A program made the translations under genes and the position numbers. The notes beneath the pieces were generated by a model. It was not told where the DNA came from. It did no database searches and saw only the letters and a program-made list of their open reading frames with translations. A stretch of 64,000 nt of DNA from positions 21,802 to 85,801 of the forward strand of contig VMGF01000001.1 in assembly GCA_007376445.1 (NCBI GenBank). The letters run 5' to 3'. Below, piece after piece: positions 3,926 through 58,901 of the stretch; positions within the stretch are counted from its first letter, which is position 1; each line of letters opens with the position of its first letter. Origin of the DNA: Parcubacteria group bacterium Gr01-1014_3. Lineage in GTDB: Bacteria; Patescibacteriota; Minisyncoccia; UBA6257; WO2-44-18.

Positions 3926-5011
3926 ATGTCTAAAATCCTGATTGTTGTCGATGCTCCCGGACCGGCTGAGTTTATTTTACCAGTCATACCTAGACTTACA
4001 ACTTATAACTTGAAACTTATAACTGTCGGCAACTCCCCCACTAAAATCCTAGCCGCGTATAAGCCACTGCGCATAGATAGCGAGGCCGAAGCCACGAAAA
4101 TTTACACCGAAATCAATCCTGACATTTTATTGGTCGCGATGAGTTCGCTAGTACTCGGCCCATATGTAAACCAAAAAATCACCGAACTCGCCCACGCTGA
4201 CAAAAAGAAAATAATCTGTTTCCAGGATTATTGGGCTAATCATCGGCACGCGATGAACTTCAAAATGCTGAATTTCTGGGATGTGGTTTTGGTGCCAGAT
4301 GAGCTCGCGAAAAATTATTTATTGGAAGATGGCTACTCCGGCCAAATCGTCATCACTGGCAATCCGGGCTTTGATCGCTTCCGCGATCTAGATGTCGCGG
4401 CGGAAAGAAAAAGGCTTCGCGCCAAGTTCGGGATTGCCGAGGGTTCATTCGTCATTCTCCACTCCGGCACCGGAACACCACAAAGCTACAAAGAAGACGA
4501 AATAACCTTTAATTTTCTCGCTAAGGCCGTCCGTGAACTTTCCGCAAACTTAAAACTTGAAACTAATAACTTAAAACTTATTTTTATCTCGCGCCCGCAC
4601 CCTCGCGATGAAGAGCCCGGTCGTTATCAAAGACTTGCGCCGGACTTGAACTTGTTGGATACCTCTACAATTCCACTAACCGAAGATATTCTGCCGATCG
4701 CGGATCTTTCGGTGGCGATGTACTCCACCAACCTGATCCATGCCTGCTATATGCGAATACCCGGCATCAGTATTCTTCTTCCGAATGCCGGATTAAAGAG
4801 GTTAGAAAAAACCTCGCTTCAAGATTTCCCACCGAATAATCTCGGCGCCACGATCGGGATTTACGAGGAATCCGTGCCAAAACTCAAAAATGAAATTGAA
4901 AAAATAATATCGGATTCAAGTTATCGGAATAAAATCATTGAAACGCAGAAAAAGTATTTTAAGCTTGAGGGTGAACTGGCTTCCGTTAAAGTCGCGGATG
5001 TGATAAGTTAG
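3926..5011 (+). CDS. hypothetical protein, possibly GT-B fold sugar-transferase-like (uncertain)
   Basis: long ORF with TGTATAAT extended -10 6 nt upstream of ATG (leaderless-type); two in-frame copies of the AT-rich repeat encode NLKLIT/ANLKLETNNLKLIF. Confidence 0.6.
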   Translation: MSKILIVVDAPGPAEFILPVIPRLTTYNLKLITVGNSPTKILAAYKPLRIDSEAEATKIYTEINPDILLVAMSSLVLGPYVNQKITELAHADKKKIICFQDYWANHRHAMNFKMLNFWDVVLVPDELAKNYLLEDGYSGQIVITGNPGFDRFRDLDVAAERKRLRAKFGIAEGSFVILHSGTGTPQSYKEDEITFNFLAKAVRELSANLKLETNNLKLIFISRPHPRDEEPGRYQRLAPDLNLLDTSTIPLTEDILPIADLSVAMYSTNLIHACYMRIPGISILLPNAGLKRLEKTSLQDFPPNNLGATIGIYEESVPKLKNEIEKIISDSSYRNKIIETQKKYFKLEGELASVKVADVIS

Positions 5012-7616: not shown

Positions 7617-8040
7617 TGCACGCCATAGATATAATCAATTTAGAATATTCAGAAATTTCAGGAAGATGATCTATGCTAAACCACTTTGCTTCTAAAATTT
7701 CCCGTGTATCAATATTTAATTCTTTATTTTGGGTTATTCCTGTAAAAACTATTACCGTATCTTTTTTGAATTCTTGATTAGAGGTATATTCTCCAATCTT
7801 TCTTAAATTTTCAACTGCGATTCCTACTTCTTCTAATAACTCCCTTTTTATCGCCTGATCGGGTGTTTCATTATTATTTATGCCACCGCCCGGAAACATC
7901 CACTGTTTATAACCACCATAGCTATTTTTGATCATCAAAACTTCTCCGTCATTTTCAACCACGCATTTTACGCCGAATGTTTTTGGCCTGAATATAAACC
8001 AATAAATTAATCCTAAAAAATGTTTAATCTTACTTACCAT
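7600..8040 (-). CDS. NUDIX hydrolase
   Basis: Nudix box [24 protein letters not shown]; start trimmed to MVSKIKHF to avoid overlap with secA stop. Confidence 0.75.
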
Positions 8041-10384
8041 GACACTTCTTATATTTCTTTCCGCTGCCGCAAGAGCAGGGCTCATTCCTACCAACCTTCG
8101 GTTGGTCACCATTGACCGATGACATATGACTGATGACGGAAGATGATGGCATGGTCATTTTGTCATTGTTATTGGTCATAGTCTGCAAACGCTCCGCGTT
8201 TGCGGCCATCCATTCCTCAAAATCCGCCAGCATCTGCCGATATAAGCGGAAGCCTTCGCTACGGTATTCAACCAGCGGATCGTGCTGGCCGTAGGCGCGC
8301 AAACGAACCGATTCCGTGAGCGCTTCCATATTTTCCAAATGCGTCATCCAGAACATGTCCAGCGCGCCCAAAATTTGCGGATGGCCCCCGCTGAATAAAA
8401 GTTCGTTGCGCTTTTTATAGATTGCTTGGCGCTGTTTATTCAAAACATCGTCATAATCCAATAAATGTTTGCGGGCATCGAAGTTCGCGCCCTCAACTCT
8501 CCCCTGCGCTTGCGCCACCACGCGCGAAACTACTTTCGATTCGATCGGCATATCATCCGGCACTTTCAACATCTGCATCATGCCTTTTAAACGATCGCCT
8601 CCGAAGATCCGCATCAGGTCATCCTCAACTGACAAAAAGAATTGCGAAGAACCCGGATCACCCTGACGGGCGCAGCGGCCACGGAGCTGGTTATCAATGC
8701 GGCGGGATTCGTGGCGTTCGGTGCCGATCACGTGCAAACCGCCCAGCTCCTTCACCTTTGTGGCATCCAGAATATCGGGTGGATTGCCGCCCAAAATAAT
8801 ATCCACGCCACGGCCGGCCATGTTGGTGGCTACAGTCACACCGCCCAGCTTTCCAGCCTGCGCGATGATCGCGCCTTCGCGTTCGTTGTTTTTGGCGTTC
8901 AACATCTCGTGCGGAATACCGCCATCCCGGAGCGCGCGGGAAAGTTCTTCATTTTTCTCAATGGAAACCGTGCCGATCAAAACCGGCTGGCCCTTTTTAT
9001 TGCGTTCTTTTACATCCGCCACGATCGCCGCGTATTTTCCAGCCATATTCTTAAATATCAGATCGGACTGATCTTTACGCACATTTTCCCGATTCGGCGG
9101 AATCGAAACCACCCCAAGTTTATAAACTTTATCGAACTCTTCGGCGGAGGTCTGCGCCGTACCAGTCATGCCGCCAAGTTTTTTATACAAACGGAAATAA
9201 TTTTGAATGGAGATCTGCGCGTAGGTTTTAGATTCATTCTGCACGCTCAAGCCCTCTTTAGCTTCGATGGCCTGATGTAAACCACCAGAATACCGGCGAC
9301 CAGGAAGCAAACGACCGGTGAACTGGTCAACGAGAATTATCTCACCTCCGCCCGTTCCGGCGGATTTTACAACATAATCCTTATCCAGTTTAAAAAGCGC
9401 CTTGGCTTTCAAACTTTCCTGAAGATAATGCGTCAGTCGCAAATTTTCCGGGCCATAAAGTTCTTTGATATTTAACTGCTTCTCAACTTTATCAATGCCG
9501 GCATCGGTCATCTCCACCGCCTTCAGTTTTTCGTCTTTGGTGTAATCAACTCCATCTTCGAGGCGCTCCACCAGCCGCGCGAAAGTTTTGTAATATTCGC
9601 TGGAAGCCGTATCCGGCGCGGAAATGATCAAAGGCGTGCGGGCCTCATCAATTAAAATACTGTCCACCTCGTCGATGATCGCGTAGTTGTGATCACGTTG
9701 AACTTTTTGCTCCAAGCGATAGATTAAATTATCGCGGAGATAATCAAAACCGAACTCGTGGTTAGTTCCATATGTAATATCCGCCCAGTAGGCATCGCGC
9801 CTGGAAACCGGGCGCAAGAATTCTTGCTGGACTAAAAAGGCGCCAGTCGTGTCCCGCTCGCGATCGATCAGGGCCTGATCATCCGCCGGTACGCGATAAG
9901 TTGGGTCGTACATCAGCGCACCGTCGTGGATCAAGCAAGCCACCTTCAAACCGAGCGCGTGATAGATCTGGCCCATCCAGACAGTGTCGCGTTTGGCGAG
10001 ATATTCGTTGACCGTCACCACGTGCACGCCATTTCCGGTAAGCGCGTTCAGATATACCGGCGCGGTAGCCGAAAGAGTCTTACCTTCACCGGTACCCATC
10101 TCGGCGATCTTGCCCTGATGTAGAGCCACACCGCCCATCAACTGAACATCGAAATGCCGTTGGCCAAGATTGCGTTTGGCAACTTCACGAACTAAGGCAA
10201 AAGCTCGCGGTAAGACCCGGTCCAAATCCGGCGAAACTTTTATTTCATCCCGAAGCCGCTCACTTTCCATCTTCAAACCGGCATCGCTTAAAACCTTAAT
10301 CTCACCCTCCAGGGCGTTTATCTCAACTACGGCTTTTCGTAGAGCCGCGTCCGACTTAAAAAGTTTTGAAAGCCATTTGAACAT
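8030..10384 (-). CDS. secA: preprotein translocase ATPase SecA
   Basis: DEAD motor motifs ([26 protein letters not shown]), C-terminal zinc-binding tail [15 protein letters not shown]. Confidence 0.95.
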
Positions 10385-11993: not shown

Positions 11994-12036
11994 TTCGCAA
12001 TATTAAATCTCTGATTTGTATATTCGCGATTACTCC
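11994..12036 (-). promoter_or_regulatory. conserved 43-nt upstream motif, copy B (before hpf)
   Basis: TTCGCAATATTAAatctctgATTTGTATATTCGCGATTACTCC. Confidence 0.6.
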
Positions 12037-13007
12037 ACATATATCACTTCCTCCTCTAACTTTATGCCGTATTTCTTATCCACGCCAGACTTCACCAGTT
12101 TAATTAACTGCTTCACATCCTCCGCTTTGGCGCCGAGCGCGTTGACGATAAAGTTTGGATGCTTTGGCGAAATCATCGCGCCGCCGAAGCTGACTCCTTT
12201 CAATCCAGCCTGCGAAATAAGGTACGCCGTCGGCACGACCGGGAATGGGTCTTTTTTGATAACTTCCTTGAACTCTGAGTGGAGTTTTTTCGGGACCAGT
12301 CGCAAATCCACATTCTTAAAAATACTGCCGATATTCGGATACTCCAGCGGCTGGCGCGCTTTCCGGTAGGCGATCTTTTCCTCGATCGCCGCGCGGATGG
12401 CTTTCTTGTCGCCTTTTTTCATTTTGAAAACTGCTTCGATAATAATCTCCTTTGGCCCTAAGCCGACTTGCCCTGAGCTTGCCGAAGGGTCGTCGATCTT
12501 GAAAATGCTATTTCGATAACCAAATTTACATTCTGCATTATTGCGCTTCACTATCTTCGGGATCTTGGCAGAAATATCTAGGCTGACAACTTCATTTATA
12601 TTGTCTTTCGTTTCACCACCAAAAGCTCCGGCGTTACCGCGGATTGCGCCACCAACCGTCCCAGGCAGACCGCCAGCCCATTCGAATCCTGAAAGTGATT
12701 TAGTAATTGAGTAATTGAGTAATTCAGAAATCTGCACACCGGCTCCAACCCGGATCAGATTACCTTCCGCTTTTAATAAACCGATCTCCGGCTTTAAAAC
12801 CAGCCCGCCAAAACCCGCGTCGCTGATCAGAAGGTTGGTACCGCCGCCCAGCGTGAAGATCGGGAGTTTTTCCGCGCGCGCTTTTTCCACGGCGCAAACT
12901 ATGTCCTCAACAGTTTTCGCGGCAAAAAAATAGCGGGCAGCGCCGCCAATTTTGTAGTTGCTGTATTTGGCTAATTCGATTTTATTCTCAAACATGCATT
13001 TATTCAT
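12030..13007 (-). CDS. murB: UDP-N-acetylenolpyruvoylglucosamine reductase
   Basis: FAD-binding N-terminus KIGGAARYF...LGGGTNLL, C-terminal MurB domain; contains in-frame GC 20-mer encoding PSASSGQ. Confidence 0.85.
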   Translation of the reverse strand: MNKCMFENKIELAKYSNYKIGGAARYFFAAKTVEDIVCAVEKARAEKLPIFTLGGGTNLLISDAGFGGLVLKPEIGLLKAEGNLIRVGAGVQISELLNYSITKSLSGFEWAGGLPGTVGGAIRGNAGAFGGETKDNINEVVSLDISAKIPKIVKRNNAECKFGYRNSIFKIDDPSASSGQVGLGPKEIIIEAVFKMKKGDKKAIRAAIEEKIAYRKARQPLEYPNIGSIFKNVDLRLVPKKLHSEFKEVIKKDPFPVVPTAYLISQAGLKGVSFGGAMISPKHPNFIVNALGAKAEDVKQLIKLVKSGVDKKYGIKLEEEVIYVE

Positions 13008-23688: not shown

Positions 23689-23958
23689 CCCGTTAGAAGC
23701 AGGTCGTCGAAGACGACCGCGGATTTGCCGTCCGACAACGGTTCAGTAAAAGCTTTAATTTATTGTTTAAGCTGTGTGTCATAGATTAGTTGCTTCTAAC
23801 GGGATCTATGTTTTTATCATAGCACTTTATGGACTTTAGAGACTTTAAGGACTTTCGGCTTATAAAGTTATCCACATAAGCCAAAATAGGCCAGAATTTC
23901 AATGGTATAATTAAAAACATAGTGAAAGGTCGGCTTTAAACATAAACAAACAATACTT

Positions 23959-28111: not shown

Positions 28112-28190
28112 TTTATAAAGTTAAAAGTCGAAAGTCCATAAAGCGAGATGCCTTACGGACTTTATAGACTTTACGAACTTGCGACTTAGA
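28112..28190. repeat. AAAGTCCATAAAG repeat cluster (spacer yqeY / rpsU)
   Basis: aaagtcgaaagtccataaagcgagatgccttacggactttatagactttacgaacttgcgactt. Confidence 0.6.
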
Positions 28191-28464: not shown

Positions 28465-28600
28465 TGTTAATTTCCAATTTTAAATTTTTAATTTTAAATT
28501 AAATCAAAATGAGAAAATGTTAAAAAATTTATTCATTAATTCATTCAATTAAAACTTAAAATTTATAATTTAAAATTATTCCATTTTAGCTTAGAATTTG
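28465..28600. repeat. AT-rich AATTTTAAATT repeat island (operon spacer rpsU / HIT)
   Basis: tandem degenerate units ttccaattttaaatttttaattttaaatt...; same family at 28931-29026, 30340-30456, 38170-38265, 50692-50806, 51670-51755, 37255-37300. Confidence 0.7.
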
Positions 28601-28930: not shown

Positions 28931-29026
28931 AAAATTTTAAATTTCCAATTTTAAATTTTAATTTAATTTTTTAATTTATGAATTTTATAATTCATTTAAA
29001 ATTAAAAATTTAGAATTTAAAATTAC
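28931..29026. repeat. AT-rich AATTTTAAATT repeat island (spacer HIT / hisS)
   Basis: aaattttaaatttccaattttaaattttaatttaatttttt... Confidence 0.7.
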
Positions 29027-30339: not shown

Positions 30340-30456
30340 GATTAAGAATTTATAAGCAAGTTTTTTGGAATTTTAAATTATAAATTTTTAATTTTAAATG
30401 AATTTTAAATTTTGAAATTAGTAATTAATTTAAAATTTATAATTTAAACTTTAAAA
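30340..30456. repeat. AT-rich repeat island (spacer hisS / lepB)
   Basis: ggaattttaaattataaatttttaattttaaatgaattttaaattttgaaatt... Confidence 0.7.
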
Positions 30457-31011
30457 TTATTCAACGCCTGGTCGGGAAATAATGCCAAGCTCTTTAACCG
30501 GTAAGAGGCGGGCCCTGACAATACCAACGATATATCTCCTCTCCAGCGGTCCCCAACTTCTTGAATCCAGGCTGTTCAAACGATTATCCCCCATCACGAA
30601 ATACTGATCCGGCCCGAGCACCGCTTCCACGCCACCGGTCGTAAAAGTATTCTCCGGAAGATATTTTTCGTTGAGGAAAATCTCCACGCCTTTGTTGAAA
30701 ACTTTAACTTCATTTTTTCTGACGGTTACTTTATCTCCCGGAATGCCGATAATTCTTTTAATAAAAAAAGTTTTAGGATCTTTAGGATACCGGTGCACGA
30801 TCACGTCGCCGCGCTCCGGCTCACCGAATCGATAAGTCAGTTCATCTACTATTAAATAATTGCCGTCGTAAAAGTTCGGCTCCATACTGGCGCCGCTCAC
30901 TAAAAATGGCTGGGCGATGAACTGGCGAATCAAAAACACCACGGCCGCCGAAACGATGACCACCTCCAGCACTTCCCAGACAGAAGATAAGAATTTCTTG
31001 AAGCCAACCAT
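30457..31011 (-). CDS. lepB: signal peptidase I
   Basis: GASMEPNF (Ser box), RIIGIPGDKV, YFVMGDNRLNSLDSR boxes. Confidence 0.85.
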   Translation of the reverse strand: MVGFKKFLSSVWEVLEVVIVSAAVVFLIRQFIAQPFLVSGASMEPNFYDGNYLIVDELTYRFGEPERGDVIVHRYPKDPKTFFIKRIIGIPGDKVTVRKNEVKVFNKGVEIFLNEKYLPENTFTTGGVEAVLGPDQYFVMGDNRLNSLDSRSWGPLERRYIVGIVRARLLPVKELGIISRPGVE

Positions 31012-31390: not shown

Positions 31391-31891
31391 ATGAATTCTG
31401 ACATCAAATTAATCATTGGCCTCGGGAATCCTGGAAGGAAATATGAAAACACCTACCACAGCGTTGGTTTTCTTTTTGTTGACTACTTGAAAGAAAACCA
31501 ACAAATTTTCAATTTTAAATTTTCAATTTTAAAATCTACCGAGTATATGAATAAGTCCGGAAAATTCGTCGCCGAAGCAGTAAAAAAAGAAGGTATTGAA
31601 TCGGAGGAATTATTGGTCGCTCACGACGACAGCGACTTAGAACTTGGAACTTATAAACTTCAGATAGGGCGTGGCGCGGGCGGTCATCATGGAGTGGAAA
31701 GCATTCAGCAACACCTTAAGACCAACGAATTTTGGCGATTGCGTATCGGCATCCGACCCTCGCCCTCCGAAGCTTCAACGAAGGATGGGCGCCACCTAAA
31801 AGCCGGGGAATTTGTGCTGAAAAAAATCTCTCCCGTAAATAAAAAAATCCTCGAAAAAGTTTTCGAGAAAATTGCGGAAGAATTGAAATAA
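31391..31891 (+). CDS. pth: peptidyl-tRNA hydrolase
   Basis: IIGLGNPGRKYENTYHSVGF, HDDSDLELGTYKLQIGRGAGGHHGVESI; segment QQIFNFKFSIL is encoded by the AT-rich repeat. Confidence 0.85.
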   Translation: MNSDIKLIIGLGNPGRKYENTYHSVGFLFVDYLKENQQIFNFKFSILKSTEYMNKSGKFVAEAVKKEGIESEELLVAHDDSDLELGTYKLQIGRGAGGHHGVESIQQHLKTNEFWRLRIGIRPSPSEASTKDGRHLKAGEFVLKKISPVNKKILEKVFEKIAEELK

Positions 31892-31920
31892 AAAAACCGG
31901 CTTAATGCCGGTTAAGAAAA
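31890..31920 (-). terminator. terminator of minus-strand gene 31921-32277
   Basis: rc ttaaccggcattaagccggttttttt. Confidence 0.55.
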
Positions 31921-32277
31921 TTAGATTCCGTGGTGGTCCAAAACGATGTGCGGGCCAACCGGTTTTACGGTTACCTTGGCGTTATTGAGAAGCGTCAGCC
32001 CCTCGCTCGGCGGAACCTTAGGCCATTTCTTGGCGAAGCGCTTGAGAAACAACGCGTCCGCGAGCTCCCGAGTCTCCTCGATGATCACCACCGGACCATG
32101 GCCGTCCTTGGGAACTTTCTGCTCATAAATAAAGACTTTGAGCCTGAGGATCATAACAGCAGCGCGAAGGAGAGTAGTCGAACGTTGCGCTCTCTTGTTT
32201 TCTTTGTCCACCCAATTAAGAAAAGACTTAGCCCTTTCAAGCTCTTCAAGCGTCATCTTTTTTAGTGGATCGCCCAC
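31921..32277 (-). CDS. hypothetical protein
   Basis: ORF with hairpin terminator 31890-31920 directly after stop. Confidence 0.5.
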   Translation of the reverse strand: MGDPLKKMTLEELERAKSFLNWVDKENKRAQRSTTLLRAAVMILRLKVFIYEQKVPKDGHGPVVIIEETRELADALFLKRFAKKWPKVPPSEGLTLLNNAKVTVKPVGPHIVLDHHGI

Positions 32278-32323
32278 AAAACCTCCTATAAATGATCTGG
32301 CCAGATTGTACGATAATTTTTCC

Positions 32324-33808
32324 TTATTGTCCAGTTACTTTAAAGCTCAAAGAAAAACTGAATCCTATGTCAGAATTCGGCTGAATATCGGAAAGCGGCA
32401 GGGCAACTTCGGAAAAGGCAGTGTCTTTGGAAAGCGCGTCTTTAAAGGCCACGATATTTTTTTCACTAGCCGCCTGCCCGTCGAATTTAGCGGTATCATT
32501 GGTCAGATTCAATTTTTCTATCGTAATACCATTGGCACGGGTTAAGCTCCGAATCTTATTGATCACCGGAGAAACCGGCCCCGCTTCACTTTCCGCCAAC
32601 GACACCAAGTTAACTAAGTTATTAAAACTCTCCGCCTCGGATCGTAGCCGCGAAATTTCTTCAATAGAAACTAGCGCGCTGCCGGTCAACGCCTGATCCG
32701 CCGTGCGCGCCTGAATGATAAAAGCGATATCGGTCGCGCCAAATGAAAGAGATAAAAATGCCAGAACACTCGCGAAAACCTTCCGCCAGCTTCTGATGAA
32801 GTTGATCCAGGTATGAATATAATAATTATTTCCAGTCTTTTTGGGATTCAAAGAAATCCCCTCGTCTTTATTGGGCGCAATATTTCCCCGCAAAGCCGCG
32901 CCAACGGACTGATACCATTTCGGCGAAAGATATGGAAAATCGTTAATTAGAATACTCTGCATCGGAATGCCTAGACCCAAAAGAAGATCAGTCAGCTTCT
33001 CGCTCGCGAATTCGCTGATCAGGATCAGCGCGGCCGGATTGCGCCCAAGGCTAGCTCCGCTTTCGGCGAAAAATGTGGAAATTTCTTTGAGTAAGCTGTC
33101 ATTCACCGCTTTTTCCATCAAAGTCTTACCGCCGACTTCCTGATAGATCCTCAGCCAGGAAAAATATTTCTGGCCGAAGAGATTGCCATCTCGTGTCAAA
33201 AGCATATCCAAGCCGTCATTCTTAACTAGAGCGATCGCGTACGCCTCGCCGGGCAGAAAACCGCCGCCATAATTACCCAAGAATCTGGAAATTGAAAGCC
33301 CGGCGAACTCTACCGCGCGGACGGTGAATCCGGCTTTATCCGCCACGTTCGCGAAGGAATCAATGATCTCTTTTCGCGCGTAAACGCCCAAAAAATCCAA
33401 GCGATGCTGGTCATCCGCTTTATCCAATATCTGATAATCGTGATAAGCCACGTCTATCGGCATTGGAGCGGCCATGTGCAAATTCAGCTTCGCCACCTCG
33501 TCCGGCTTGGATTTTTGCGTAACCGGTACGGCAAAATTCTTTGTCTGGATATAGTTCTGCGGAATCGTAAGAACGACATGCGAATCCCGATCGAAGTCCG
33601 GAATAAACGCCTGAAGTTTTTTCAAAGCGGCAATCAGCTGGTCCGGCTCTGCCACCGCTCCGCCAACCACCGTGCCAGGCAGAAGCGGCACCGCTTCATT
33701 GACCAGATAACTGCCAGACAGCTTGGAATACCGGATTTCATCTTCGGCGATCTCCAATCCCCCGGTCTCCGGAAACGGAGCAAAAAGTTTTTTTAAAATA
33801 CGTAGCAT
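32324..33808 (-). CDS. type IV pilus assembly protein, PilM-like N-terminal region fused to TM-containing C-terminal (PilN/O-like) region (tentative)
   Basis: actin-like ATPase-fold segments, central TM helix, genomic context next to prepilin gene; start at ATG 33808 with 43-nt upstream motif. Confidence 0.45.
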   Translation of the reverse strand: MLRILKKLFAPFPETGGLEIAEDEIRYSKLSGSYLVNEAVPLLPGTVVGGAVAEPDQLIAALKKLQAFIPDFDRDSHVVLTIPQNYIQTKNFAVPVTQKSKPDEVAKLNLHMAAPMPIDVAYHDYQILDKADDQHRLDFLGVYARKEIIDSFANVADKAGFTVRAVEFAGLSISRFLGNYGGGFLPGEAYAIALVKNDGLDMLLTRDGNLFGQKYFSWLRIYQEVGGKTLMEKAVNDSLLKEISTFFAESGASLGRNPAALILISEFASEKLTDLLLGLGIPMQSILINDFPYLSPKWYQSVGAALRGNIAPNKDEGISLNPKKTGNNYYIHTWINFIRSWRKVFASVLAFLSLSFGATDIAFIIQARTADQALTGSALVSIEEISRLRSEAESFNNLVNLVSLAESEAGPVSPVINKIRSLTRANGITIEKLNLTNDTAKFDGQAASEKNIVAFKDALSKDTAFSEVALPLSDIQPNSDIGFSFSLSFKVTGQ

Positions 33809-33819
33809 CCCGTTTTTTA

Positions 33820-33860
33820 TTCGCAATATTAATCTTTTATTTGTATATTAGCGATTACTT
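33820..33860 (-). promoter_or_regulatory. conserved 43-nt upstream motif, copy D (before pilM-like gene)
   Basis: TTCGCAATATTAATcTTTTATTTGTATATTaGCGATTACTt; 11 nt from ATG 33808. Confidence 0.55.
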
Positions 33861-34748: not shown

Positions 34749-35595
34749 AATATTTTCTCTAAAACTAGAGAATTGATGTTCCCACCGCACGGACGGTTTT
34801 CCCGTATACGGCGAGCTCAATGCATTTTTTGCTTTAGCTTATAAAGATCACGCAAACCGCTAGGAATAAGGTGTTCGCCTTTGCGGATCCTACGCATAAT
34901 CTCACAGAAAATTTGGAAATCGTACCTCTTTGAAGGAAATCGTAATCGATTTTCTTTGAAAAACGGTATAATTATTTCTGCCAAATCTGTTCTGTTAGCT
35001 ACTTCGAAACGATAGCAATGCTGATGATTTTCGCGATTGTCTTTTTGAAAGTAGACATTCCCGCATTTAAAGTATTCCTTTAAAGCATCCAGTATTACCT
35101 TATCCTTTTCGATAAGCTTTACGTAAAATCTAGGCTCTATCTTTACTCTTCTAGTTGTTCTGTTGATTTGATCAGGATTACGAACATAAGCAGTAAAACT
35201 GCCTTCGCCATCCACCAAACCAACGATGTAATCTTTAGTTAACATTGAGTGAGTGCCTTCATCCCGCTAATCGAGACTACTATGACTCAGCTGACTTCTG
35301 ACGCTGCGTCAGTTTTATGATACCTCGATATTGCTATCGAGAACAGCATCAGATCTCCACAGGTCACGTAAAATTCTCTTCTTAGCATCCTAGACAAGCC
35401 GTAGATAAAGTCTTCCCCGCCCTCACCACCCACTGGCAGGTCGACTGGCTTTGTTAATGTCTGGCTGTTATTTGCTTTCAGATCCTCCACCGAACACCTC
35501 GCGATGCTCGGCTATCTTTTAGCTACGTTCCGATGACGGACATCGGAAGAATGGATTTTAACCATTTAGAAAATTACGCTGCTGCGCGCTTTTAT
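34749..35595 (-). mobile_element. self-splicing-type intron (847 bp) in 16S rRNA near the helix-44 base (E. coli position about 1400), carrying a LAGLIDADG homing endonuclease ORF
   Basis: conserved CCTGTACTCAC | ... | CGCCCGTCA junction is split by non-rRNA sequence containing ORF 34817-35245. Confidence 0.7.
34817..35245 (-). CDS. LAGLIDADG homing endonuclease (intron-encoded)
   Basis: YIVGLVDGEGSF dodecapeptide motif, size 142 aa, located inside 16S intron. Confidence 0.8.
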   Translation of the reverse strand: MLTKDYIVGLVDGEGSFTAYVRNPDQINRTTRRVKIEPRFYVKLIEKDKVILDALKEYFKCGNVYFQKDNRENHQHCYRFEVANRTDLAEIIIPFFKENRLRFPSKRYDFQIFCEIMRRIRKGEHLIPSGLRDLYKLKQKMH

Positions 35596-35912
35596 TGTGA
35601 GTACAGGACTCGAGAACGTATTCACCGTGGTATAGCTGACCCACGATTACTAGCGATTCCAGCTTCATGAGGGCGAGTTGCAGCCCTCAATCTGAACTGA
35701 GGCCATTTTTGATGGGATTAGCTCCGCCTTGCGGCTTGGCAACCCTTTGTAATGGCCATTGTAGCACGAGTGTGGCCCAGGGCATCAGAGGGCCATGCGG
35801 ATTTGACGTCATCCCCGCCTTCCTCCGTGTTAAACACGGCAGTCTCCCGCGACATATAAAACGCAGGATAGGGGTTGCGCTCGTTAACCCACTTAAGGGA
35901 ACGCTTCAAAGT

Positions 35913-35944
<32 letters not shown>

Positions 35945-36067
35945 TCACGTCCTTGAGAGACGACGCACCTTTCGGCGCGTCTTCGTGACCATTTCAAGCC
36001 CTGGTAAGGTTCTTCGTTTATTGTCGAATTAAACCTCATGCTCCACCGCTTGTGCGAGTCCCCGTCT

Positions 36068-36099
<32 letters not shown>

Positions 36100-36609
36100 T
36101 CCCAGGCGGTCAACTTAACGCGTTAGCTACGCCACTCCGAGGGTCGATACTCGAAACAGCAAGTTGACATAGTTTAGGGCGTGGACTACAAGGGTATCTA
36201 ATCCTTTTTGCTCCCCACGCTTTCGTGCAATGAGAGTCAGGAGTGCTCCAGTTAAATGCCTTCGCCTTTGGTATTCCTCACAATATCAACGGATTTCACC
36301 CCTACACCGTGAGTTCTATTAACCTCTAGCACCCTCTAGTCAGGCCGTATCTTCTGCGAGCTTCCCGTTGAGCGGGAAGATTTTACAAAAGACGCACCCG
36401 ACCTCCTGCGCACGCTTTACGCCCAATAAATCCGGATAACGCTCGTGGCCTTCGTATTACCGCGGCTGCTGGCACGAAGTTTGCAGCCACTTATTCCATG
36501 GGTACAATCAATAACTTTTTCCCCATTAAAAGCAGTTTACGATCCGAAGACCTTCATCCTGCACGCGGCGTCGCTCGATCAGACTTTCGTCCATTGTCGA
36601 ATATTCTCG

Positions 36610-36652
<43 letters not shown>

Positions 36653-37419
36653 CGTTGGGGATCAGCCTCTCAGCCCCCCTACCGGTCATAGCCTTGGTGA
36701 GCCATTACCTCACCAACTAGCTGATCGGACCTAGGCCGCTCCCGAAGTGACTTGCGTCTTTCGTCTTTCGACAATATCGGACATTAGTCTATCTTTCGAT
36801 AGATTATTTCCGTCTTCGGGGTGCGTACCAAGGTGTTACTAACCCGTTCGCCACTATACTTTTATCTCTCTTGACTTGATATAATCTCATCTTAATTAAC
36901 AAAAGTACCGTTCGACTTGCATGCCTTATCCACGCCGCCAGCGTTCATCCTGGACCAGGATCAAATCCTCAAAAAAAATTACCGAACATTGAATTTATTT
37001 TAGTAAATTCACCATTCGCTAACTGTTGGGACAACTACAAAATTCTTGACTAAATTTTGACTCGATCTTGATTTTTAATTCTTGGTTGTGTATACAACAC
37101 ACTGCAATTTTCGAAGTTCAGTCGGCTGCGCTTTTTTAATAACGCATCCGGCCCGCTCTCCCTGAATCCCAGAGGGAACCGGCCGGATGAATTAAAACCT
37201 TTATTCACTTGTCGCCTATCTGTGAAAAGAAGTATATATGAAAGCGCTGTTTCGTGTCAACTGTCACAAAACAGCGAATTTTCAATTCTCAATTTTGCAA
37301 TTTTTGTCCCTTCGGGACATCTCCTGTAGGAAGACAATTAATTTACAATGAATTAATGTCCAAACAGTTTGATAATTTTATTTTAAGCATTGAATGAAAA
37401 TTGGTATTTGGAAATTGAA

Positions 37420-37458
37420 AAATTAAGCCCCGCTTTGCCTTAAGGCAAAGCGGGGCTG
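37420..37458 (-). terminator. terminator after lipoprotein gene
   Basis: agccccgctttgccttaaggcaaagcggggct, T-rich tract on minus strand. Confidence 0.65.
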
Positions 37459-38169: not shown

Positions 38170-38265
38170 GAAATTTTAAGTTTTAAATTATAAATTTTAA
38201 TTTAATTATTTAATTTCAAAATTTAAAATTAATTTATAATTAAAAATTTAGAATTTAAAATTATC
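38170..38265. repeat. AT-rich repeat island (upstream of lipoprotein gene / rpmE)
   Basis: gaaattttaagttttaaattataaattttaatttaatt... Confidence 0.65.
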
Positions 38266-47044: not shown

Positions 47045-47135
47045 GATTACTATTCTAACCCTAAGAGCGACTAGCGACTAGGGCTTAGCGACTAGAATTT
47101 CCTAATGGCTAGTGGCTAATCGCTAACTAACTATT

Positions 47136-48401
47136 TTAAACTTCAAACCATCCTTTGAAAATATTCGCCTTACTCCGTTTCTCCAGCTCTTCCACGTTAA
47201 AATAATTTGAGAATATTTTATTCCAAAGCGCTTCCTGCTGATGATAGAGATATTTATTTTTATATTTACGCATCACCAATGCCATCACGGTATCCACGAT
47301 ATTAAAGCTCACCAGCACCTCCACGCCCGTATCGGTCTTAAAGAAATCGCCGACCGTGCCCAGACTTTCCCAAAAATCCAAACCATTCTTGAATTCCGGC
47401 ATTTTTCCCGGTATGCCGGTCAGCTCTATCTCTGCTTTTTTCCAATGCAATGCTTCCGGGTTCACGCGCGGCTCAAACAACCGCCAATCATTCTCGTCAT
47501 CCTTTGATAAATACCGCTGTACCACTAAAAATCTCGGCCTCCTGAACTCCTGCATCATCTCCGGCAAACGATGCTCTGTCACATCACCCCGCAAAAGTGA
47601 GATTAACTTTTTAGCGAACTCATGGCCATTGCCCATTTTTTGGATTATCCCGGAATAAAACTGCACCTCGTTTAAATAGTGAAGCAATAAGCAAACTAGG
47701 CGCAAAGTTTCTCCGGAGATACCCAAAAAGATTGGAATCACGAATATCACGCCCATCTCTTTGAGGTGGCTGACGTTGTGGTACTTCTTCGCCACGAACT
47801 TCTCGGCGGCTTTGGCCCACTTCGGGCTCAGCGCCTTTAAAACTATTTCACGTTCTTCGAAATCCTCAAGGCGCAAAGATTCGTATTGCTTGAAAAAAAC
47901 TTTATTCAACCAGTCAGCCTCTTCCAGAAAACGAAGCGCGCAAAAAATCTCCAACAGGTCCTCTTTTTGCAGCATCTCATCCACGTATTGATACCCTAGC
48001 GCTTTTAAAATATTTTTTGGCGGTTCGGCGATCAATAACTGCCTGGCTTTTTCATGCTTAAGAAAAAAGCCTTTCTGGCTAGGATGAATTTTTTTTAACA
48101 TATCCACGACTTTACCCGCGTCTTTTACGTGGTCGAAGCCTGTCATTTCAAGCGCTTTAAATAAATTAAGGTCATCCGCCTCAACTTTGCTGATCAAGGC
48201 ATCGAAAAGCTCCTGGGCTGGAACGCTGCGGCTAAGCCCTAGCGTATCGAGGCGCGCGGTCACTATCGCCTCGTTTTCTTCGGCGATCTTTTTGATGACA
48301 TTAATTTTCCCGGTGGCTCTTTCCATTTCGGCGTCAAATTCCGCGAAAACATGCTTATCCATGCGCAACATCCGCGCGATCTTGTCGTGATGAGGGGTCA
48401 T
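47136..48401 (-). CDS. conserved hypothetical protein (421 aa) embedded in sugar-phosphate operon
   Basis: long clean ORF between pfkB-family kinase and fba; no motif recognised. Confidence 0.6.
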   Translation of the reverse strand: MTPHHDKIARMLRMDKHVFAEFDAEMERATGKINVIKKIAEENEAIVTARLDTLGLSRSVPAQELFDALISKVEADDLNLFKALEMTGFDHVKDAGKVVDMLKKIHPSQKGFFLKHEKARQLLIAEPPKNILKALGYQYVDEMLQKEDLLEIFCALRFLEEADWLNKVFFKQYESLRLEDFEEREIVLKALSPKWAKAAEKFVAKKYHNVSHLKEMGVIFVIPIFLGISGETLRLVCLLLHYLNEVQFYSGIIQKMGNGHEFAKKLISLLRGDVTEHRLPEMMQEFRRPRFLVVQRYLSKDDENDWRLFEPRVNPEALHWKKAEIELTGIPGKMPEFKNGLDFWESLGTVGDFFKTDTGVEVLVSFNIVDTVMALVMRKYKNKYLYHQQEALWNKIFSNYFNVEELEKRSKANIFKGWFEV

Positions 48402-48407
48402 ATGGTG

Positions 48408-48444
48408 AGTCTAAAGTTGAAAGTCCTTAAAGTCCATAAAGTAA
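48408..48444. repeat. AAAGTCCATAAAG repeat cluster (spacer pfkB / hyp)
   Basis: tctaaagttgaaagtccttaaagtccataaagtaatt. Confidence 0.6.
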
Positions 48445-49452
48445 TTATGTTAAGCTTTCAATCTTGATTTCTAAATCTTTCCAGCGAGGATCTTTGTCGA
48501 ACTCTTCACGGGTTAAAATACCATCAGTCGCGCCGATGTGCTCGACTACCGAAGTAGAGTTAGCCGCGGCGAATCGAATCGCCTTTTTGATTAAATCAGC
48601 GTCACCGTAATTCCTGAACCTTGCCAGCATCGCCGTAAACCCGCTGCCAAAAGCGTCTCCCGCGCCGGTACGATCCACAATCTCCTTTTCCCGATAAATC
48701 CCGGAACGATAAATGCGTTTACCGTCGGAAACTATGGCGCCGTTCGGCCCATCAGTAATAGCCACGATTCCAGGCATCCGCTTATCCAATTCTTTAAAGA
48801 CTTCTTTTTCTTTTTTATAGGGCATTTTTAATAGATCGGCCGCTTCGCCGGTGTTCAAGACCAGAAACTCAATATCTTTTAACGAATCCAATATCTCATT
48901 CGGCCAATGTTTGATGTGATGACCGCTAGGGTTAAAAGCGACTTTGATTTTATTTTTTTTGGCGAATTGAATAAGCGACGGATACATCGCGTCCGACTCG
49001 CCAGCCAAAGAAATATACCACCATCGGGCTTTGAGTTTTTCGAGATCAAGGTCGCGGATCGAAAGCGTGTCTGAAGCGCCGTGATAACTCAAAATAGTCC
49101 GTTCGCCGTTTCTTAATAGCAAAGCCGAATAAGCGGTTGGCTTTTCATTGGAAATCACTGACAAGCTCGTACTCACTCCCTCCTTTTTTAACTGCTCAAG
49201 AATCTCCGCGCCGGGAAGATCATTACCAACTTTGGCCAAGCAGGCAGTTTTAAAACCATGCCGCGCGAAAGTCACGCTGGCATTAGCGGAATTGCCACCG
49301 ATCTTAAAATAAGCCTCATCCACACCCAACTTCTCGCCCAATGGCAAAACAATCGCCTTTTTAAGAGGCGCGGCGGGCCAGTTAGTAAGCGGATAGTTAG
49401 CTTTCAGGAAATTATCCCTGGTCGCGGAACCGATTGCTACGACATCGTACAT
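48445..49452 (-). CDS. PfkB-family carbohydrate kinase (ribokinase/phosphofructokinase-like)
   Basis: GGNSANASV (motif 1) and TGAGDAFGSGF (motif 2, anion hole). Confidence 0.8.
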   Translation of the reverse strand: MYDVVAIGSATRDNFLKANYPLTNWPAAPLKKAIVLPLGEKLGVDEAYFKIGGNSANASVTFARHGFKTACLAKVGNDLPGAEILEQLKKEGVSTSLSVISNEKPTAYSALLLRNGERTILSYHGASDTLSIRDLDLEKLKARWWYISLAGESDAMYPSLIQFAKKNKIKVAFNPSGHHIKHWPNEILDSLKDIEFLVLNTGEAADLLKMPYKKEKEVFKELDKRMPGIVAITDGPNGAIVSDGKRIYRSGIYREKEIVDRTGAGDAFGSGFTAMLARFRNYGDADLIKKAIRFAAANSTSVVEHIGATDGILTREEFDKDPRWKDLEIKIESLT

Positions 49453-49656: not shown

Positions 49657-50688
49657 CTATTTTCTTTTCAATACTTTTTTCACCGCGCCAACGATATCTT
49701 TCACTCCCATTCCATACTTTTCAATAAGTTCCAGCGGAGCGCCGGATTCGCCAAAGACATTTTGAAGACCGATGAACTCCATCGGTACCGGACACTTTTT
49801 TGCTAAAAACTCCGCGACAGCTCCGCCAAGACCGCCAGAAACCTGATGCTCCTCCACCGTGACCACTGCTCCAGCTTTTTGCGCTACTTCCAAAATCGTG
49901 TGTTCATCGAGCGGTTTTACCGTGTGGCTATTTATCACCGTCACGTTTATTTTTTCTTTTTCCAGTTCTTTGGCGGCAAGCAGAGCGTTGTGAAGTAAAA
50001 GCCCGCAACCAATGATCACCACATCCGGCTTGCCAACTTGTCCTGAGCCCGCCTGCCCCGCCGTGGCGGTGGCCGAAGGATTCCACATTATCTCCGCTTT
50101 TCCAGGAGTAAACGGCGTGTCTTCCGTGGTCATCACCGGAGATTTCTCGCGCGCGAAACGGATATAAGTCGGGCCCCAGAGTTTGGCCGCGGCGATGGTG
50201 GCCTTTTTAGCTTCGATCGCGTCGCAGGGTACAAACACTTTCATATTCGCCAGCACGCGCATTGTGGCGATATCCTCTACTGCCTGATGCGTGGCCCCAT
50301 CTGGCCCCACCGAAATGCCGGCGTGATGCCCGGCGATCTTCACGTTGGAATCGTTGTAGGAAATCGTAGTTCGGATCTGCTCCCAGTTTCGGCCAGGAGA
50401 GAAGGCGGCGTAAGAAGAAATAAAAGGAATCTTTCCGGAAACTCCCAGTCCCGCCGCGATGGCCGCCATATTTTGCTCCGCCACGCCAAGCTCAAAAAAT
50501 CGTTCAGGATATTTTTTCGCGAAAGCTTCAGATCGGGTAGACTCGCTCAAATCCGCGCAAAGCACCACCACATTCGGGTCGGCCTCGCCGGCGATCAAAA
50601 GCCCATCGCCGTAACCATTACGAATAGGCTTTTGATCTACGTCCTTATCAAAAACTTTCGGATTTAGTTTTAGTTCTGGGTTTAACAT
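49657..50688 (-). CDS. tkt: transketolase, C-terminal (pyrimidine-binding) subunit
   Basis: FELGVAEQNM, GATHQAVEDIA; split-gene arrangement with N-terminal subunit upstream. Confidence 0.85.
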   Translation of the reverse strand: MLNPELKLNPKVFDKDVDQKPIRNGYGDGLLIAGEADPNVVVLCADLSESTRSEAFAKKYPERFFELGVAEQNMAAIAAGLGVSGKIPFISSYAAFSPGRNWEQIRTTISYNDSNVKIAGHHAGISVGPDGATHQAVEDIATMRVLANMKVFVPCDAIEAKKATIAAAKLWGPTYIRFAREKSPVMTTEDTPFTPGKAEIMWNPSATATAGQAGSGQVGKPDVVIIGCGLLLHNALLAAKELEKEKINVTVINSHTVKPLDEHTILEVAQKAGAVVTVEEHQVSGGLGGAVAEFLAKKCPVPMEFIGLQNVFGESGAPLELIEKYGMGVKDIVGAVKKVLKRK

Positions 50689-50691
50689 GGA

Positions 50692-50806
50692 ATAATTTTA
50701 AATTATAAATTTTAAGTTTTAATTGAATGAATCAATGAACAAATTTTTAAACATTTTATCATTTTGATTTAATTTAAAATTAAAAATTTAAAATTGAAAA
50801 TTAGCG
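50692..50806. repeat. AT-rich repeat island (spacer between split tkt genes)
   Basis: aataattttaaattataaattttaagttttaattgaatg...aaaattaaaaatttaaaattgaaaatt. Confidence 0.7.
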
Positions 50807-51682
50807 CTACTCGTGTTCTGATTTTATTTTCCCTTTTAGCGTCCTTAATTCTGCCAGCGCTTTATTGGCTTCTTCTTTATTCGGCGGTTTGCCGTGCCAG
50901 TTGTAATCATTTTCCATGAAGCTCACTCCCTTCCCCGGAATCGTGTGCGCGATGATCACAGTCGGTTTTTCATAAATCGCCTGCGCTTCAGTGATCGCGT
51001 CCACGAACTGCTCGATATTATGGCCATCAACTTCCAGCACGTGCCAGCCGAAAGATTCATATTTAGATCGGAATGGCTCAAGCGGCATGATATTTTCCGT
51101 AAAGCCATCGATCTGAATATTGTTACGATCCACCACCATCGTGAGATTGCTCAACCGATTTTTTCCGGCAAACATCGCCGCTTCCCAGGTGTTGCCGCAA
51201 TCATGCTCTCCGTCAGAAGTAAGCGCGTAAACCCGGTATTTCTTTTTATCCATTCGCGCCGCGAGCGCCATACCCACTGCTTGTGAAAGTCCGGAGCCAA
51301 GCGGGCCGGAAGTAGTTTCCATACCCGGAAGAGAAGTCCTATGCGGATGCCCCTGAAGCCGGGAATTTATTTTGCGGAGAGTTTTTAATTCGGAAATCGG
51401 AAAATATCCCGCGTGCGCCATGGTTACATACCGCACCGGGCAAATATGACCGTTGGAAAGAACTAGCCGATCTCGCTCCGGCCAATCCGGCCGTTTCGGA
51501 TCATGATTCAAAATATGAAAATAAAAAGCGGTGAAGATATCAGTCATGCCGAGCGGACCGGCTGAATGACCGGAACCGGCCTGAACCAGCGTCTCAATAA
51601 TATCCTCACGGATCTCAGTCGCCTTTTCCTCGAGGAATTTTAATTTTTTATCGTGCAGAGCGGGGAGCATTATAATTTTCAA
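50807..51682 (-). CDS. tkt: transketolase, N-terminal (TPP-binding) subunit
   Basis: GHSAGPLGMTDI, SDGEHDCGNTWEA TPP motifs. Confidence 0.85.
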   Translation of the reverse strand: MKIIMLPALHDKKLKFLEEKATEIREDIIETLVQAGSGHSAGPLGMTDIFTAFYFHILNHDPKRPDWPERDRLVLSNGHICPVRYVTMAHAGYFPISELKTLRKINSRLQGHPHRTSLPGMETTSGPLGSGLSQAVGMALAARMDKKKYRVYALTSDGEHDCGNTWEAAMFAGKNRLSNLTMVVDRNNIQIDGFTENIMPLEPFRSKYESFGWHVLEVDGHNIEQFVDAITEAQAIYEKPTVIIAHTIPGKGVSFMENDYNWHGKPPNKEEANKALAELRTLKGKIKSEHE

Positions 51683-51755
51683 TTTTTAAACTGTTTGTGA
51701 ATTGGGTCATTGTAAATTGATTGAAAATTGCAAAATTGTTAATTGGAAATTTATA
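51670..51755. repeat. AT-rich repeat island (spacer rpe / tktN)
   Basis: ttataattttcaatttttaaactg...gaaaattgcaaaattgttaattggaaatttataat. Confidence 0.6.
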
Positions 51756-58840: not shown

Positions 58841-58901
58841 CTTATTAATTGTAGCAATAAAAGACCCCGTCCTTTCCTTAGAAAGAGCGGGGTTAACTAT
58901 T

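Follow-up and report, generated by a model that had tools for sequence, protein, structure and literature searches.

Heptanucleotide tandem arrays in intergenic islands and in frame within housekeeping genes of Parcubacteria group bacterium Gr01-1014_3 and other Paceibacteria

A stretch of 64,000 nucleotides from the ultra-small Parcubacteria group bacterium Gr01-1014_3 (assembly GCA_007376445.1, contig VMGF01000001.1, positions 21,802 to 85,801; in the following, the window; G+C content about 46%) carries an AT-rich short repeat that is found in intergenic islands and also, in frame, within housekeeping genes such as pth. We demonstrate that these tracts are arrays of a 7-nt unit repeated head-to-tail and that they belong to a heptanucleotide tandem-repeat class found clade-wide in the Paceibacteria of the candidate phyla radiation (CPR). 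Judged from the sequences compared, the coding arrays occupy fixed hypervariable slots of Pth, of a SpoU methyltransferase and of a GT4-family glycosyltransferase across a wide clade, and in relatives the same slots hold arrays with other units, small palindromes, or nothing. Probably, such arrays turn over at the DNA level, by slippage and by copying between arrays, and are filtered by selection for frame and sense.

Heptamer arrays within genes and in intergenic islands

Host genes were named by Pfam and tandem arrays were called by Tandem Repeats Finder (TRF), which detected 19 arrays in the window and period-7 arrays of 3.6-5.4 copies at every coding site listed here. The first-pass annotation of this DNA had reported six in-frame sites (31503-31535 in pth; 2008-2046 and 2362-2400 in the GT4 gene; 3996-4025 and 4546-4585 in gene 3926-5011; 58511-58545 in the SpoU gene), and coordinates as well as encoded peptides were confirmed. 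In the Pth gene (31391-31891, + strand), about four in-frame units AATTTTC/AATTTTA at 31503-31535 (+) encode the peptide QIFNFKFSILKS (residues 38-49). The GT4-family glycosyltransferase gene (1657-2766, - strand) contains one array at 2008-2046 (-; site 1), encoding SENLKLKIENLKS (residues 241-253), and another at 2359-2400 (-; site 2), encoding YLNFQFSIINLQFW (residues 122-135), the two being inverted with respect to each other. Gene 3926-5011 (+), which has a weak Glyphos_transf-like (glycerophosphotransferase-like) match, carries an AACTT variant of the array at 3994-4027 (+; site 1, peptide LTTYNLKLITV) and at 4544-4585 (+; site 2, peptide ANLKLETNNLKLIF), and the SpoU/TrmH methyltransferase gene (58358-58978, -) contains an array at 58508-58546 (-) that encodes HKLKIDNLKLKI. 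The SpoU and GT4 proteins show 100% identity to those encoded on a 400-kb contig of Gr01-1014_3. A seventh coding array, absent from the first-pass annotation, was found in the SecA gene (8030-10384, -) at 8111-8149 (-), directly before the C-terminal SEC-C motif; its coding-strand unit, approximately GTCATCA, is unlike those of the other six.

The coding tracts are 28-42 nt long and consist of a single, non-palindromic arm. When compared without gaps to the arms of the intergenic islands described below, the pth array was identical at 29/30 positions (right arm of island E), the SpoU array at 29/32 and the GT4 arrays at 26/28 and 23/26, whereas the arrays of gene 3926-5011, in which AACTT replaces AATTT, reached 20/24 and 23/27. 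To call the coding repeats identical to the islands, as in the original description, is thus near the mark though a slight overstatement. The 14-mer TTTTCAATTTTAAA, allowing for at most two mismatches, occurs 42 times in the window, when 3.3 occurrences would be expected and a maximum of 11 was obtained in 100 shuffles. Several unrelated units (AATTTTA, AACTTAA, AGCGACT, CTAATGG and GTCATCA) coexist in this one genome.

In order to separate the repeat from the demands of the encoded peptide, the peptide of each tract was kept fixed, synonymous codons were resampled from the codon usage of the window and the period-7 identity was scored. At each of the seven coding sites the observed identity exceeded that of the resampled sequences (p = 5e-5 to 1e-2), indicating that codon choice tracks the repeat and that the period-7 signal in coding tracts is a property of the DNA beyond what the peptide needs. 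A perfect array of AAAATTG or TTTTAAA meets TGA or TAA within at most three units in all frames. All 11 in-frame T-N-A codons of the coding arrays are sense codons (TTA or TCA), whereas 22 of the 34 off-frame T-N-A triplets are TAA or TGA. The imperfections of the arrays coincide with the positions of would-be in-frame stops, and selection has edited the arrays.

Further repetitive tracts were noted in the genes of the window. An in-frame period-8 array, AATTACTC x 3.9, is located at 12694-12724 in the MurB gene (12030-13007, -), shows 91% matches and encodes ELLNYSITKSL; coding arrays therefore extend beyond 7-nt units. In pth itself, about four AACTTNN units, the unit of the gene 3926-5011 arrays, lie at 31635-31660 over the conserved Pth motif DLELGTYKLQ; with 2.7 copies this tract is borderline for TRF and may be due to chance or be an ancient array that became fixed where the segment is functional. 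A 16S rRNA tract at 36751-36770, in a variable helix region, has only 2.9 copies and was not counted as a period-7 array. Perfect hairpins within the ORFs of the window amount to only about 2-3 times the shuffled expectation.

The intergenic islands are palindromes of about 90-110 bp in which a T4A3 array, (TTTTNAA)n, is followed by its own reverse complement. Their hairpins are long and imperfect (z = -2.1 to -2.5), and they occupy spacers between co-directional genes, for example in the LepB-HisRS-HIT region and between two halves of a split transketolase. Island A (28471-28577; z = -2.5) lies between the HIT gene and the next minus-strand gene downstream, island B (28932-29024) fills the HisRS-HIT spacer and island C (30364-30458) fills the LepB-HisRS spacer; in the syntenic relative L081 (L numbers designate loci of the comparison set) the latter two spacers measure 0 nt and 15 nt, respectively. 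Island D (38171-38263) is another palindromic heptamer island. Island E (50694-50803), to whose arms the arrays of pth, SpoU and GT4 are most similar, is situated exactly between the genes for the N-terminal (50807-51682, -) and C-terminal (49657-50688, -) parts of the split transketolase. The weaker island F (51676-51751), between rpe and the N-terminal transketolase gene, shows no significant folding. Island G (37277-37421), upstream of the 16S rRNA gene, is a pair of inverted arrays about 90 nt apart, and a GC-containing palindromic island with the units AGCGACT/CTAATGG (47066-47126; z = -3.1) lies between an aldolase gene and ORF 47136-48401.

Another intergenic repeat family has a period of 9 nt (TAAAGTCNN, with CTTTATGGA as its complement); some of its copies form inverted pairs, and it was found at 240-320, 23810-23860, 28120-28190 and 48405-48445. 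Adjoining an arm of island G, a perfect, G+C-rich palindrome of 32 nt with a terminator-like look, AGCCCCGCTTTGCCTTAAGGCAAAGCGGGGCT, occupies 37426-37457 upstream of the 16S rRNA gene (35550-36976, -). About 200-300 nt downstream of the latter, a LAGLIDADG endonuclease ORF (34817-35245, -) abuts a weak match to the Rfam family group-II-D1D4-1 (35254-35345, -). No 23S rRNA gene was detected in the window.

Clade-wide occurrence and protein slots of heptamer arrays

For comparison, 80 pth loci from species-representative genomes were collected, which together with the window comprise 1.23 Mb, and 80 SpoU loci from metagenomes were added; the full set comprised 165 loci (1.65 Mb). Counting arrays of at least three copies, the window and the pth loci contain 149 period-7 arrays, compared to 26, 17 and 27 arrays for periods 6, 8 and 9, respectively, and to a single period-7 array in the triplet-shuffled control. 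For all loci the corresponding numbers are 193 versus 32, 24 and 40, period-9 arrays thus being mildly enriched (40 versus 24-32 for periods 6 and 8). None of the three non-CPR loci contained a heptamer array. The arrays are dispersed and mostly intergenic: 117/203 fall within the roughly 9% of the DNA that lies outside long ORFs, and of the 27 adjacent intergenic pairs, 17 are better described as inverted and 7 as direct. Nevertheless, 76/259 arrays (about 30%) are located deep inside ORFs, that is at least 30 nt within an ORF of at least 150 amino acids, and in coding arrays the A-rich strand is the coding strand in 49 cases versus 20 with the opposite orientation. Units are diverse and lean towards AAAATTN (5.4 bits, versus 4.6 ± 0.17 bits for letter-shuffled units). 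When coding and intergenic arrays of the same locus were compared, allowing for at most one mismatch per unit, 29% of the pairs shared their unit versus 12% after permutation, and none of 2000 permutations reached the observed value; with the window left out, 16% versus 8% was obtained (p = 0.008). Seven units containing G or C recur in at least three loci of unrelated genomes (1.2 expected), and AAGTATC is present in five unrelated genomes.

In Pth, the slot lies between the motifs DYLxxN and KSxxYMN. More distant Pth proteins, including those of Burkholderiales, possess a segment of about 30 residues with a beta-hairpin region at this position, whereas in a large subclade of Paceibacteria the slot comprises 8-20 residues; the segment of the window is shorter than the ancestral one, which bears out the proposal that the tract stands in place of a longer loop. 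The units found in this slot differ between loci: AATTTTC in L003, L015 and L081, AAAGTCA x 4 in L006, GTCACAT x 4 in L010, CCCTATA x 4 in L013, AGTATCA in L002, ATTCTAG in L009 and AAAATCA x 5 in L034. The slot was located in 58 pth genes, 16 of which showed a period-7 self-identity of at least 0.70 in a 28-nt window over the slot. Eleven reached 0.80, which none did at periods 5, 6, 8 or 9; the maximum of 8874 background windows was 0.71. The reading frame is open across the slot in 58/58 of these genes. A second variable region of Pth, following the RIGIRP motif, contains arrays in L015, L017, L034 and L036. The same peptide segments encoded by unrelated DNA in unrelated bacteria, which would be at odds with the first-pass proposal, were not encountered in the Burkholderiales loci L076 and L080, which carry the canonical Pth segment and no array.

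The SpoU slot, between SIPYxKL and K-IALVxGNE, is of nearly constant length in orthologues and holds peptides such as KVKSQKSKV, KTTNYKQK or KTKNLKLKT in relatives. At the DNA level, period-7 arrays of other units are present in 8/55 loci and small perfect palindromes in many others; in L091, L092, L094, L096, L098, L100 and L124 such palindromes of 16-36 nt are in frame (GCTATCACGCGTGATAGC, CTATGACGCGTCATAG and CACTATCCTATCCGACGATCGTCGGATAGGATAGTG are examples) and both arms co-vary between loci, which could reflect either selection for a hairpin or correction by template switching. Site 1 of GT4, which we take to be the helix following the GxGP motif of this fold, lies within the Glycos_transf_1 domain and has the same length in all orthologues, where peptides such as NLKFKIENLKL, NLELRIKNYEL and SLESRIKRLG resemble translated heptamer arrays; the DNA of this site was looked at in the nearest relative. 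Site 2 of GT4 is a region of variable length in which the array-bearing lineage is up to about 7 residues longer and some members have further nested inserts. In gene 3926-5011, site 1 has the length found in homologues and site 2 is 6-8 residues longer.

These comparisons modify the earlier view of the coding tracts as micro-insertions tolerated in surface loops. Residues (about 7) were added only at the second site of GT4 and of gene 3926-5011; the first site of either gene and the SpoU slot equal their orthologous counterparts in length and are therefore replacements. Nor are the tracts fresh events peculiar to this genome, for the same Pth, SpoU and GT4 slots hold arrays clade-wide, often with other units. 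The surface-loop description applies only in part: confident AlphaFold models of Pth and SpoU (pLDDT 88 and 85; TM about 0.8 between the Pth model and solved Pth structures) place the SpoU tract in a coil of lower confidence directly before the strand IALVV, whereas the Pth tract is predicted to form a short helix (residues 37-40) and a beta strand (residues 45-48), and GT4 site 1 lies inside its domain.

Comparisons between close relatives reveal gain, loss and exchange of arrays. The nearest relative found, GCA_040960315.1 (DNA identity of 81.5% for the GT4 gene and of 78% for the SpoU gene), has kept T4A3 arrays both in SpoU and at the second GT4 site. The first GT4 site of this relative reads GAAAGTATCAAGCGTCAGGTATCAAGTATCAAG, organized as AAGTATC-AAGCGTC-AGGTATC-AAGTATC, in place of the AAAATTT/G array GAAAATTTAAAACTTAAAATTGAAAATTTAAAATCC of the window; it is shorter by 6 nt and lies between conserved flanks. 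Since distant orthologues have an A4T3-type peptide at this site, it is the nearest relative that switched the unit family wholesale. In the same relative (L085, 1387-1644) an ORF for an 85-residue GIY-YIG protein separates GT4 from rpsB; in the window, at about position 1657, the two genes abut and this ORF is missing. For Pth, L003 and L023 are 81% identical, and their length differs by exactly 21 nt (three units), the array being present in one and absent from the other. L083, with a Pth 73% identical to that of the window and the same DUF2238-pth synteny, has no array. Because arrays are gained, lost or swapped among close relatives, the suggestions of the first-pass annotation that the repeat is recombinogenic or mobile and that it could serve as a lineage marker appear reasonable.

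Other mini-repeats share these slots. In L081 the pth array equals that of the window and contains a nested, G+C-rich palindrome of 22 nt, CCTGCCTTGCCGGCCGGCAGGC, with a net gain of 21 nt that adds the residues PALPAGR. The palindrome CCTGCCTGCCGGCAGGCAGG and its variants are absent from the window and dispersed over other CPR loci, in several cases adjoining heptamer arrays; CCTGCCTGCCGGCAGGCAGG was found in 13 loci besides L081, copies of this type being recorded for L081 itself (4891-4911) and for L004, L011, L012, L016, L027, L029, L030, L040, L053, L058, L060 and L077. Palindromes of this type are nested in heptamer arrays, including in frame in pth, and give rise to peptides such as PAGRQ. 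In the pth slot of L018 and L072 there are members of a palindromic family with period 9 (GGACTTCGTAAGTCC), related to the 9-nt-period family that builds intergenic islands in the window. Finally, L082, a Logan contig corresponding to 31504-33846 of the window, is an independent assembly of the same organism, 100% identical, whose end coincides exactly with the start of the pth array; this is in keeping with assembly graphs that break at a repeat and is a practical warning for the completeness of metagenome-assembled genomes (MAGs).

Comparison with known repeat systems

The short tandemly repeated repetitive (STRR) sequences of cyanobacteria, reportedly described by Mazel et al. in 1990, are said to be heptanucleotide repeats, and Vioque reportedly found in 1997 that STRR sequences can reside in a functional gene at a variable helix, helix P12 of the RNase P RNA. 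Like these, the arrays studied here consist of tandem 7-nt units in many dispersed, mostly intergenic copies with several lineage-specific unit types per genome. In contrast to STRR sequences, with the units CCCCAGT, TTGGTCA and CAACAGT in cyanobacteria, they have AAAATTN-like and other units, occur in another phylum, are typically arranged as inverted pairs (hairpins) and stand in many cases in frame at orthologous slots. Membership among the STRR sequences sensu stricto was rejected, since the units differ and the host belongs to the Parcubacteria and is not a heterocyst-forming cyanobacterium. The Rickettsia palindromic elements (RPE) of Ogata et al. (2000) are reportedly about 100-150 bp long, share a family consensus and each add about 30-50 residues. 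The arrays resemble them as dispersed repeats that are intergenic as well as in frame within housekeeping genes, where they are translated at permissive positions. Unlike RPE, the unit measures 7 nt and coding tracts of 28-42 nt are non-palindromic, several of them replacing residues rather than adding them; no palindromic element of about 100-150 bp was found at a coding site, as only the intergenic islands are palindromic. A gain of residues as in RPE is seen at GT4 site 2 and at site 2 of gene 3926-5011, length is unchanged at GT4 site 1, in SpoU and at site 1 of gene 3926-5011, and Pth is shorter. RPE are also mentioned in PMC1779305 and PMC10969869.

Repeats within the ORFs of Borgs are said to have near-perfect units divisible by 3 and to create intrinsically disordered regions. 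The arrays of the window differ from Borg repeats by their 7-nt unit, which is not divisible by 3 and led us to discard a Borg-type assignment, by their imperfection and by encoding predicted secondary structure in some cases. A likeness to Borg repeats is that rapidly evolving tandem repeats in and between ORFs rewrite the local protein sequence (PMC9879509). The islands, being hairpin-forming and filling spacers of co-directional genes, are reminiscent of REP, BIME and REPIN sequences (PMC3116915; PMC3333891), but they are composed of heptamer arrays and not of a unique palindrome of 20-40 nt; REP are extragenic by definition, and the window yielded no RAYT or Y1 transposase. Contingency loci have long, near-perfect arrays that vary in unit number, whereas the arrays reported here match at 70-90% over 4-5 units and lie in intact ORFs.

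MacGregor (2015; PMC4679880) described TAACTGA direct repeats of 2-6 copies in Beggiatoaceae, cyanobacteria and Bacteroidetes. They are mainly intergenic and near start codons, and only one of their orientations is translatable, the other having stops in all frames, so that copies occasionally found inside ORFs are in the stop-free orientation (PMC4679880). The heptamer direct repeats of the window are similarly mainly intergenic and at times within ORFs. In contrast, the TAACTGA family has one favoured unit, its copies in ORFs are mainly located at protein termini or in hypothetical proteins, and neither palindromic pairing nor slot conservation or unit turnover is described for it (PMC4679880). 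A search of the window with TAACTGATAACTGA, allowing for at most two mismatches, gave no match, and membership in this family was rejected. Genomes of the CPR were, to our knowledge, unavailable when long simple sequence repeats (LSSR) were surveyed. According to a later account of that survey (Mrazek et al., 2007; units of 5-11 nt), heptanucleotides form the most frequent class of long simple repeats in many prokaryotes rich in such sequences, a polymerase that slips with a contact length of 7 nt was proposed as their cause, and units that are multiples of 3 are those likely to occur in coding regions (PMC4679880). By comparison with this account, it is 7-nt units that are common in coding regions of the Paceibacteria loci. 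The tracts are heptanucleotide simple repeats of the STRR/LSSR/TAACTGA kind in anatomy and, probably, in mechanism, and they are RPE-like in consequence; they lie outside the named STRR, TAACTGA and RPE families because unit sequences, taxon and element length all fail to agree. In the literature searched, heptamer repeats were not found to be described for Parcubacteria or Patescibacteria. Apparently new are the host clade, the location at orthologous sites in the interior of essential enzymes, and the concerted change of units together with the co-occupation of slots by other mini-repeats.

Possible origins of the coding arrays

Turnover of repeats at the DNA level, filtered by selection for frame and sense, is the explanation that we consider probable. 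The arrays, 3-6 copies of a 7-bp unit, are for the most part intergenic inverted pairs that form long AT-rich hairpins, and a substantial minority stands in ORFs, restricted to a few permissive and hypervariable slots such as the alpha1-beta loop of Pth, the loop before the SpoU strand IALVVGNE, a helix and a hinge of GT4 and the C-terminal linker of SecA. Whole arrays would be lengthened, lost or exchanged in situ by two processes acting together, slipped-strand replication with a 7-nt register and the copying of, or recombination between, arrays of one genome. Of the resulting versions, purifying selection would then retain those that are in frame (a net multiple of 3 nt, e.g., 21 nt for three units) and free of stops, and peptides such as NLKLKI or FNFQFSI would be by-products tolerated by the fold. 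Since the same slots hold different units in relatives, the coding arrays may be regarded as tolerated passenger DNA that rewrites pieces of proteins. The slippage part is supported by the literature on heptamer repeats (PMC4679880); we infer slippage or gene conversion as the molecular mechanism and neutrality of the coding copies. Several points weigh against this explanation. Slippage by one unit would shift the frame of essential genes, so that steps of 21 nt or conversion are needed, neither of which was directly observed, and a homology-driven switch at GT4 site 1 is hard to explain since arrays of unrelated units share little homology. No polymorphism of length or unit was seen within a population, the sole second assembly being identical and, as it ends at the array, uninformative on variation, and an exact flank-pattern scan of metagenome contigs gave no match. 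The occupation of the same slots over deep divergence, as well as the SpoU-slot palindromes with complementary arm differences, could reflect selection for a feature at the nucleic-acid level. Also, no enzyme that might move arrays was found in the window, some 70 ORFs of which gave no match to a transposase, RAYT or reverse-transcriptase domain.

Such a nucleic-acid feature would be expected if the arrays were functional cis-elements on RNA or single-stranded DNA, either a platform for a protein with a 7-nt footprint (of the cold-shock-domain, CSD, or OB-fold type) or pairing partners of the intergenic hairpins, and if coding copies were retained because they regulate translation or the processing or stability of mRNAs. 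This we hold to be unlikely, though it is kept alive by slot persistence despite unit change, by the GT4 switch at low homology and by the perfect SpoU-slot palindromes of relatives. It would also agree with the loose AAAATTN consensus, with islands that fold (z of -2.1 to -3.1) and fill spacers of co-directional genes, with the mutual inversion of the GT4 arrays and with the reported binding of CspB to heptamer repeats, one protein per heptamer (PMC4679880). However, several unrelated units coexist per genome, the array is wholly missing in the close relatives L083 and L023, coding arrays occur in both orientations, hairpin z-scores are modest with island F unfolded, and no CSD motif or gene was found in a search that covered the window and the loci and left whole genomes outside. 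To a similarly low degree we credit a broader version in which the arrays constitute a maintained system of the Paceibacteria, written by machinery or read by a protein with a 7-nt footprint, that links housekeeping mRNAs in a network of regulation or processing; the dedicated machinery would lay down or overwrite arrays as well as slot-sharing palindromes at hairpin-prone sites, fixed slots of essential genes among them, and slots would be conserved for a nucleic-acid element rather than for a peptide. The remaining explanations are progressively less likely. Pieces of non-autonomous mobile elements of the MITE, REPIN or RPE type, with an enzyme encoded elsewhere that targets existing arrays or hairpins and with coding copies as half-elements, might account for the near-identity of coding arrays to island arms, for islands that are missing from L081, for the in-place replacement of a whole GT4 array, for the period-9 family members in the pth slot of L018 and L072 and for mini-repeats nested exactly in arrays, such as CCTGCCTTGCCGGCCGGCAGGC in the L081 pth gene (related copies in L004, L012 and L016). 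We nevertheless regard this as rather improbable, as terminal inverted repeats, target-site duplications and defined ends are not evident, coding copies are single arms lacking the palindrome, array lengths and units vary continuously around no single consensus element, several coding arrays substitute sequence at unchanged length, and none of the enzymatic domains mentioned above was found in the window ORFs.

At the protein level, the coding arrays might be selected as an inexpensive source of variable amphipathic stretches by which a streamlined proteome diversifies or shortens its loops, in a Borg-like manner. The preference for the A-rich strand as coding strand (49 versus 20), which by the codon table yields peptides rich in K, N, E, I and L, the location of tracts in hypervariable regions and the replacement of a longer ancestral hairpin in Pth would be in line with it, but a period of 7 nt makes no sense at the protein level, codons are chosen in line with the DNA repeat, and intergenic DNA is by far the richer in these units. 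Moreover, the hosts, housekeeping enzymes of the cytoplasm, do not obviously need to be diverse, and purifying selection explains the strand bias equally well, which makes protein-level selection quite improbable. Phase variation, in which gain or loss of one unit toggles a gene, draws on the fact that 7 is not a multiple of 3 and that a one-unit slip shifts the frame as in known contingency loci (PMC4679880). With arrays that are short and imperfect (70-90% matches, 4-5 units) and reside in the central or final part of essential genes (pth, secA, spoU) and not in surface or restriction genes, with 58/58 located pth slots open and with two identical independent assemblies, it is very improbable. 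The AT-rich codons of K, N, I, F and L may give a repetitive impression by chance, and MAGs can be chimeric at repeats, contig L082 indeed breaking at the pth array. Chance or artefact was already refuted by the array statistics (42 versus 3.3 expected, specificity for period 7 with a shuffled control of 1, significant resampling) and hardly deserves any credence, as the same sequences occur in independent assemblies and in-frame arrays in dozens of MAGs from different studies. Seeding of arrays from flanking native sequence, such as the TTAAAA (Leu-Lys) that borders the pth slot on its 3' side, was also considered; it suits some lineages but not the units common to different slots and genes.

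If turnover of repeats at the DNA level is indeed the explanation, the CPR would join the few lineages rich in heptanucleotide repeats (heterocystous cyanobacteria, Beggiatoaceae and a few others), and heptamer repeats could inhabit the interior of essential enzymes, beyond intergenic DNA or protein termini. Wholesale unit swaps at about 80% identity would provide a fast and easily scored strain or lineage marker for uncultivated CPR bacteria, and the slots would represent a natural experiment on how well a fold tolerates arbitrary sequence. The arrays would also explain odd recurrent peptides (NLKLKI, FNFQFSI, KVKSQKS, PAGRQ) and contig breaks in CPR MAGs, both of which matter for annotation, alignment trimming and phylogenomics. 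Should it instead be true that the arrays are read by a protein or written by a machinery, they would offer a second, very different test system for the question of the prokaryotic preference for 7 nt.

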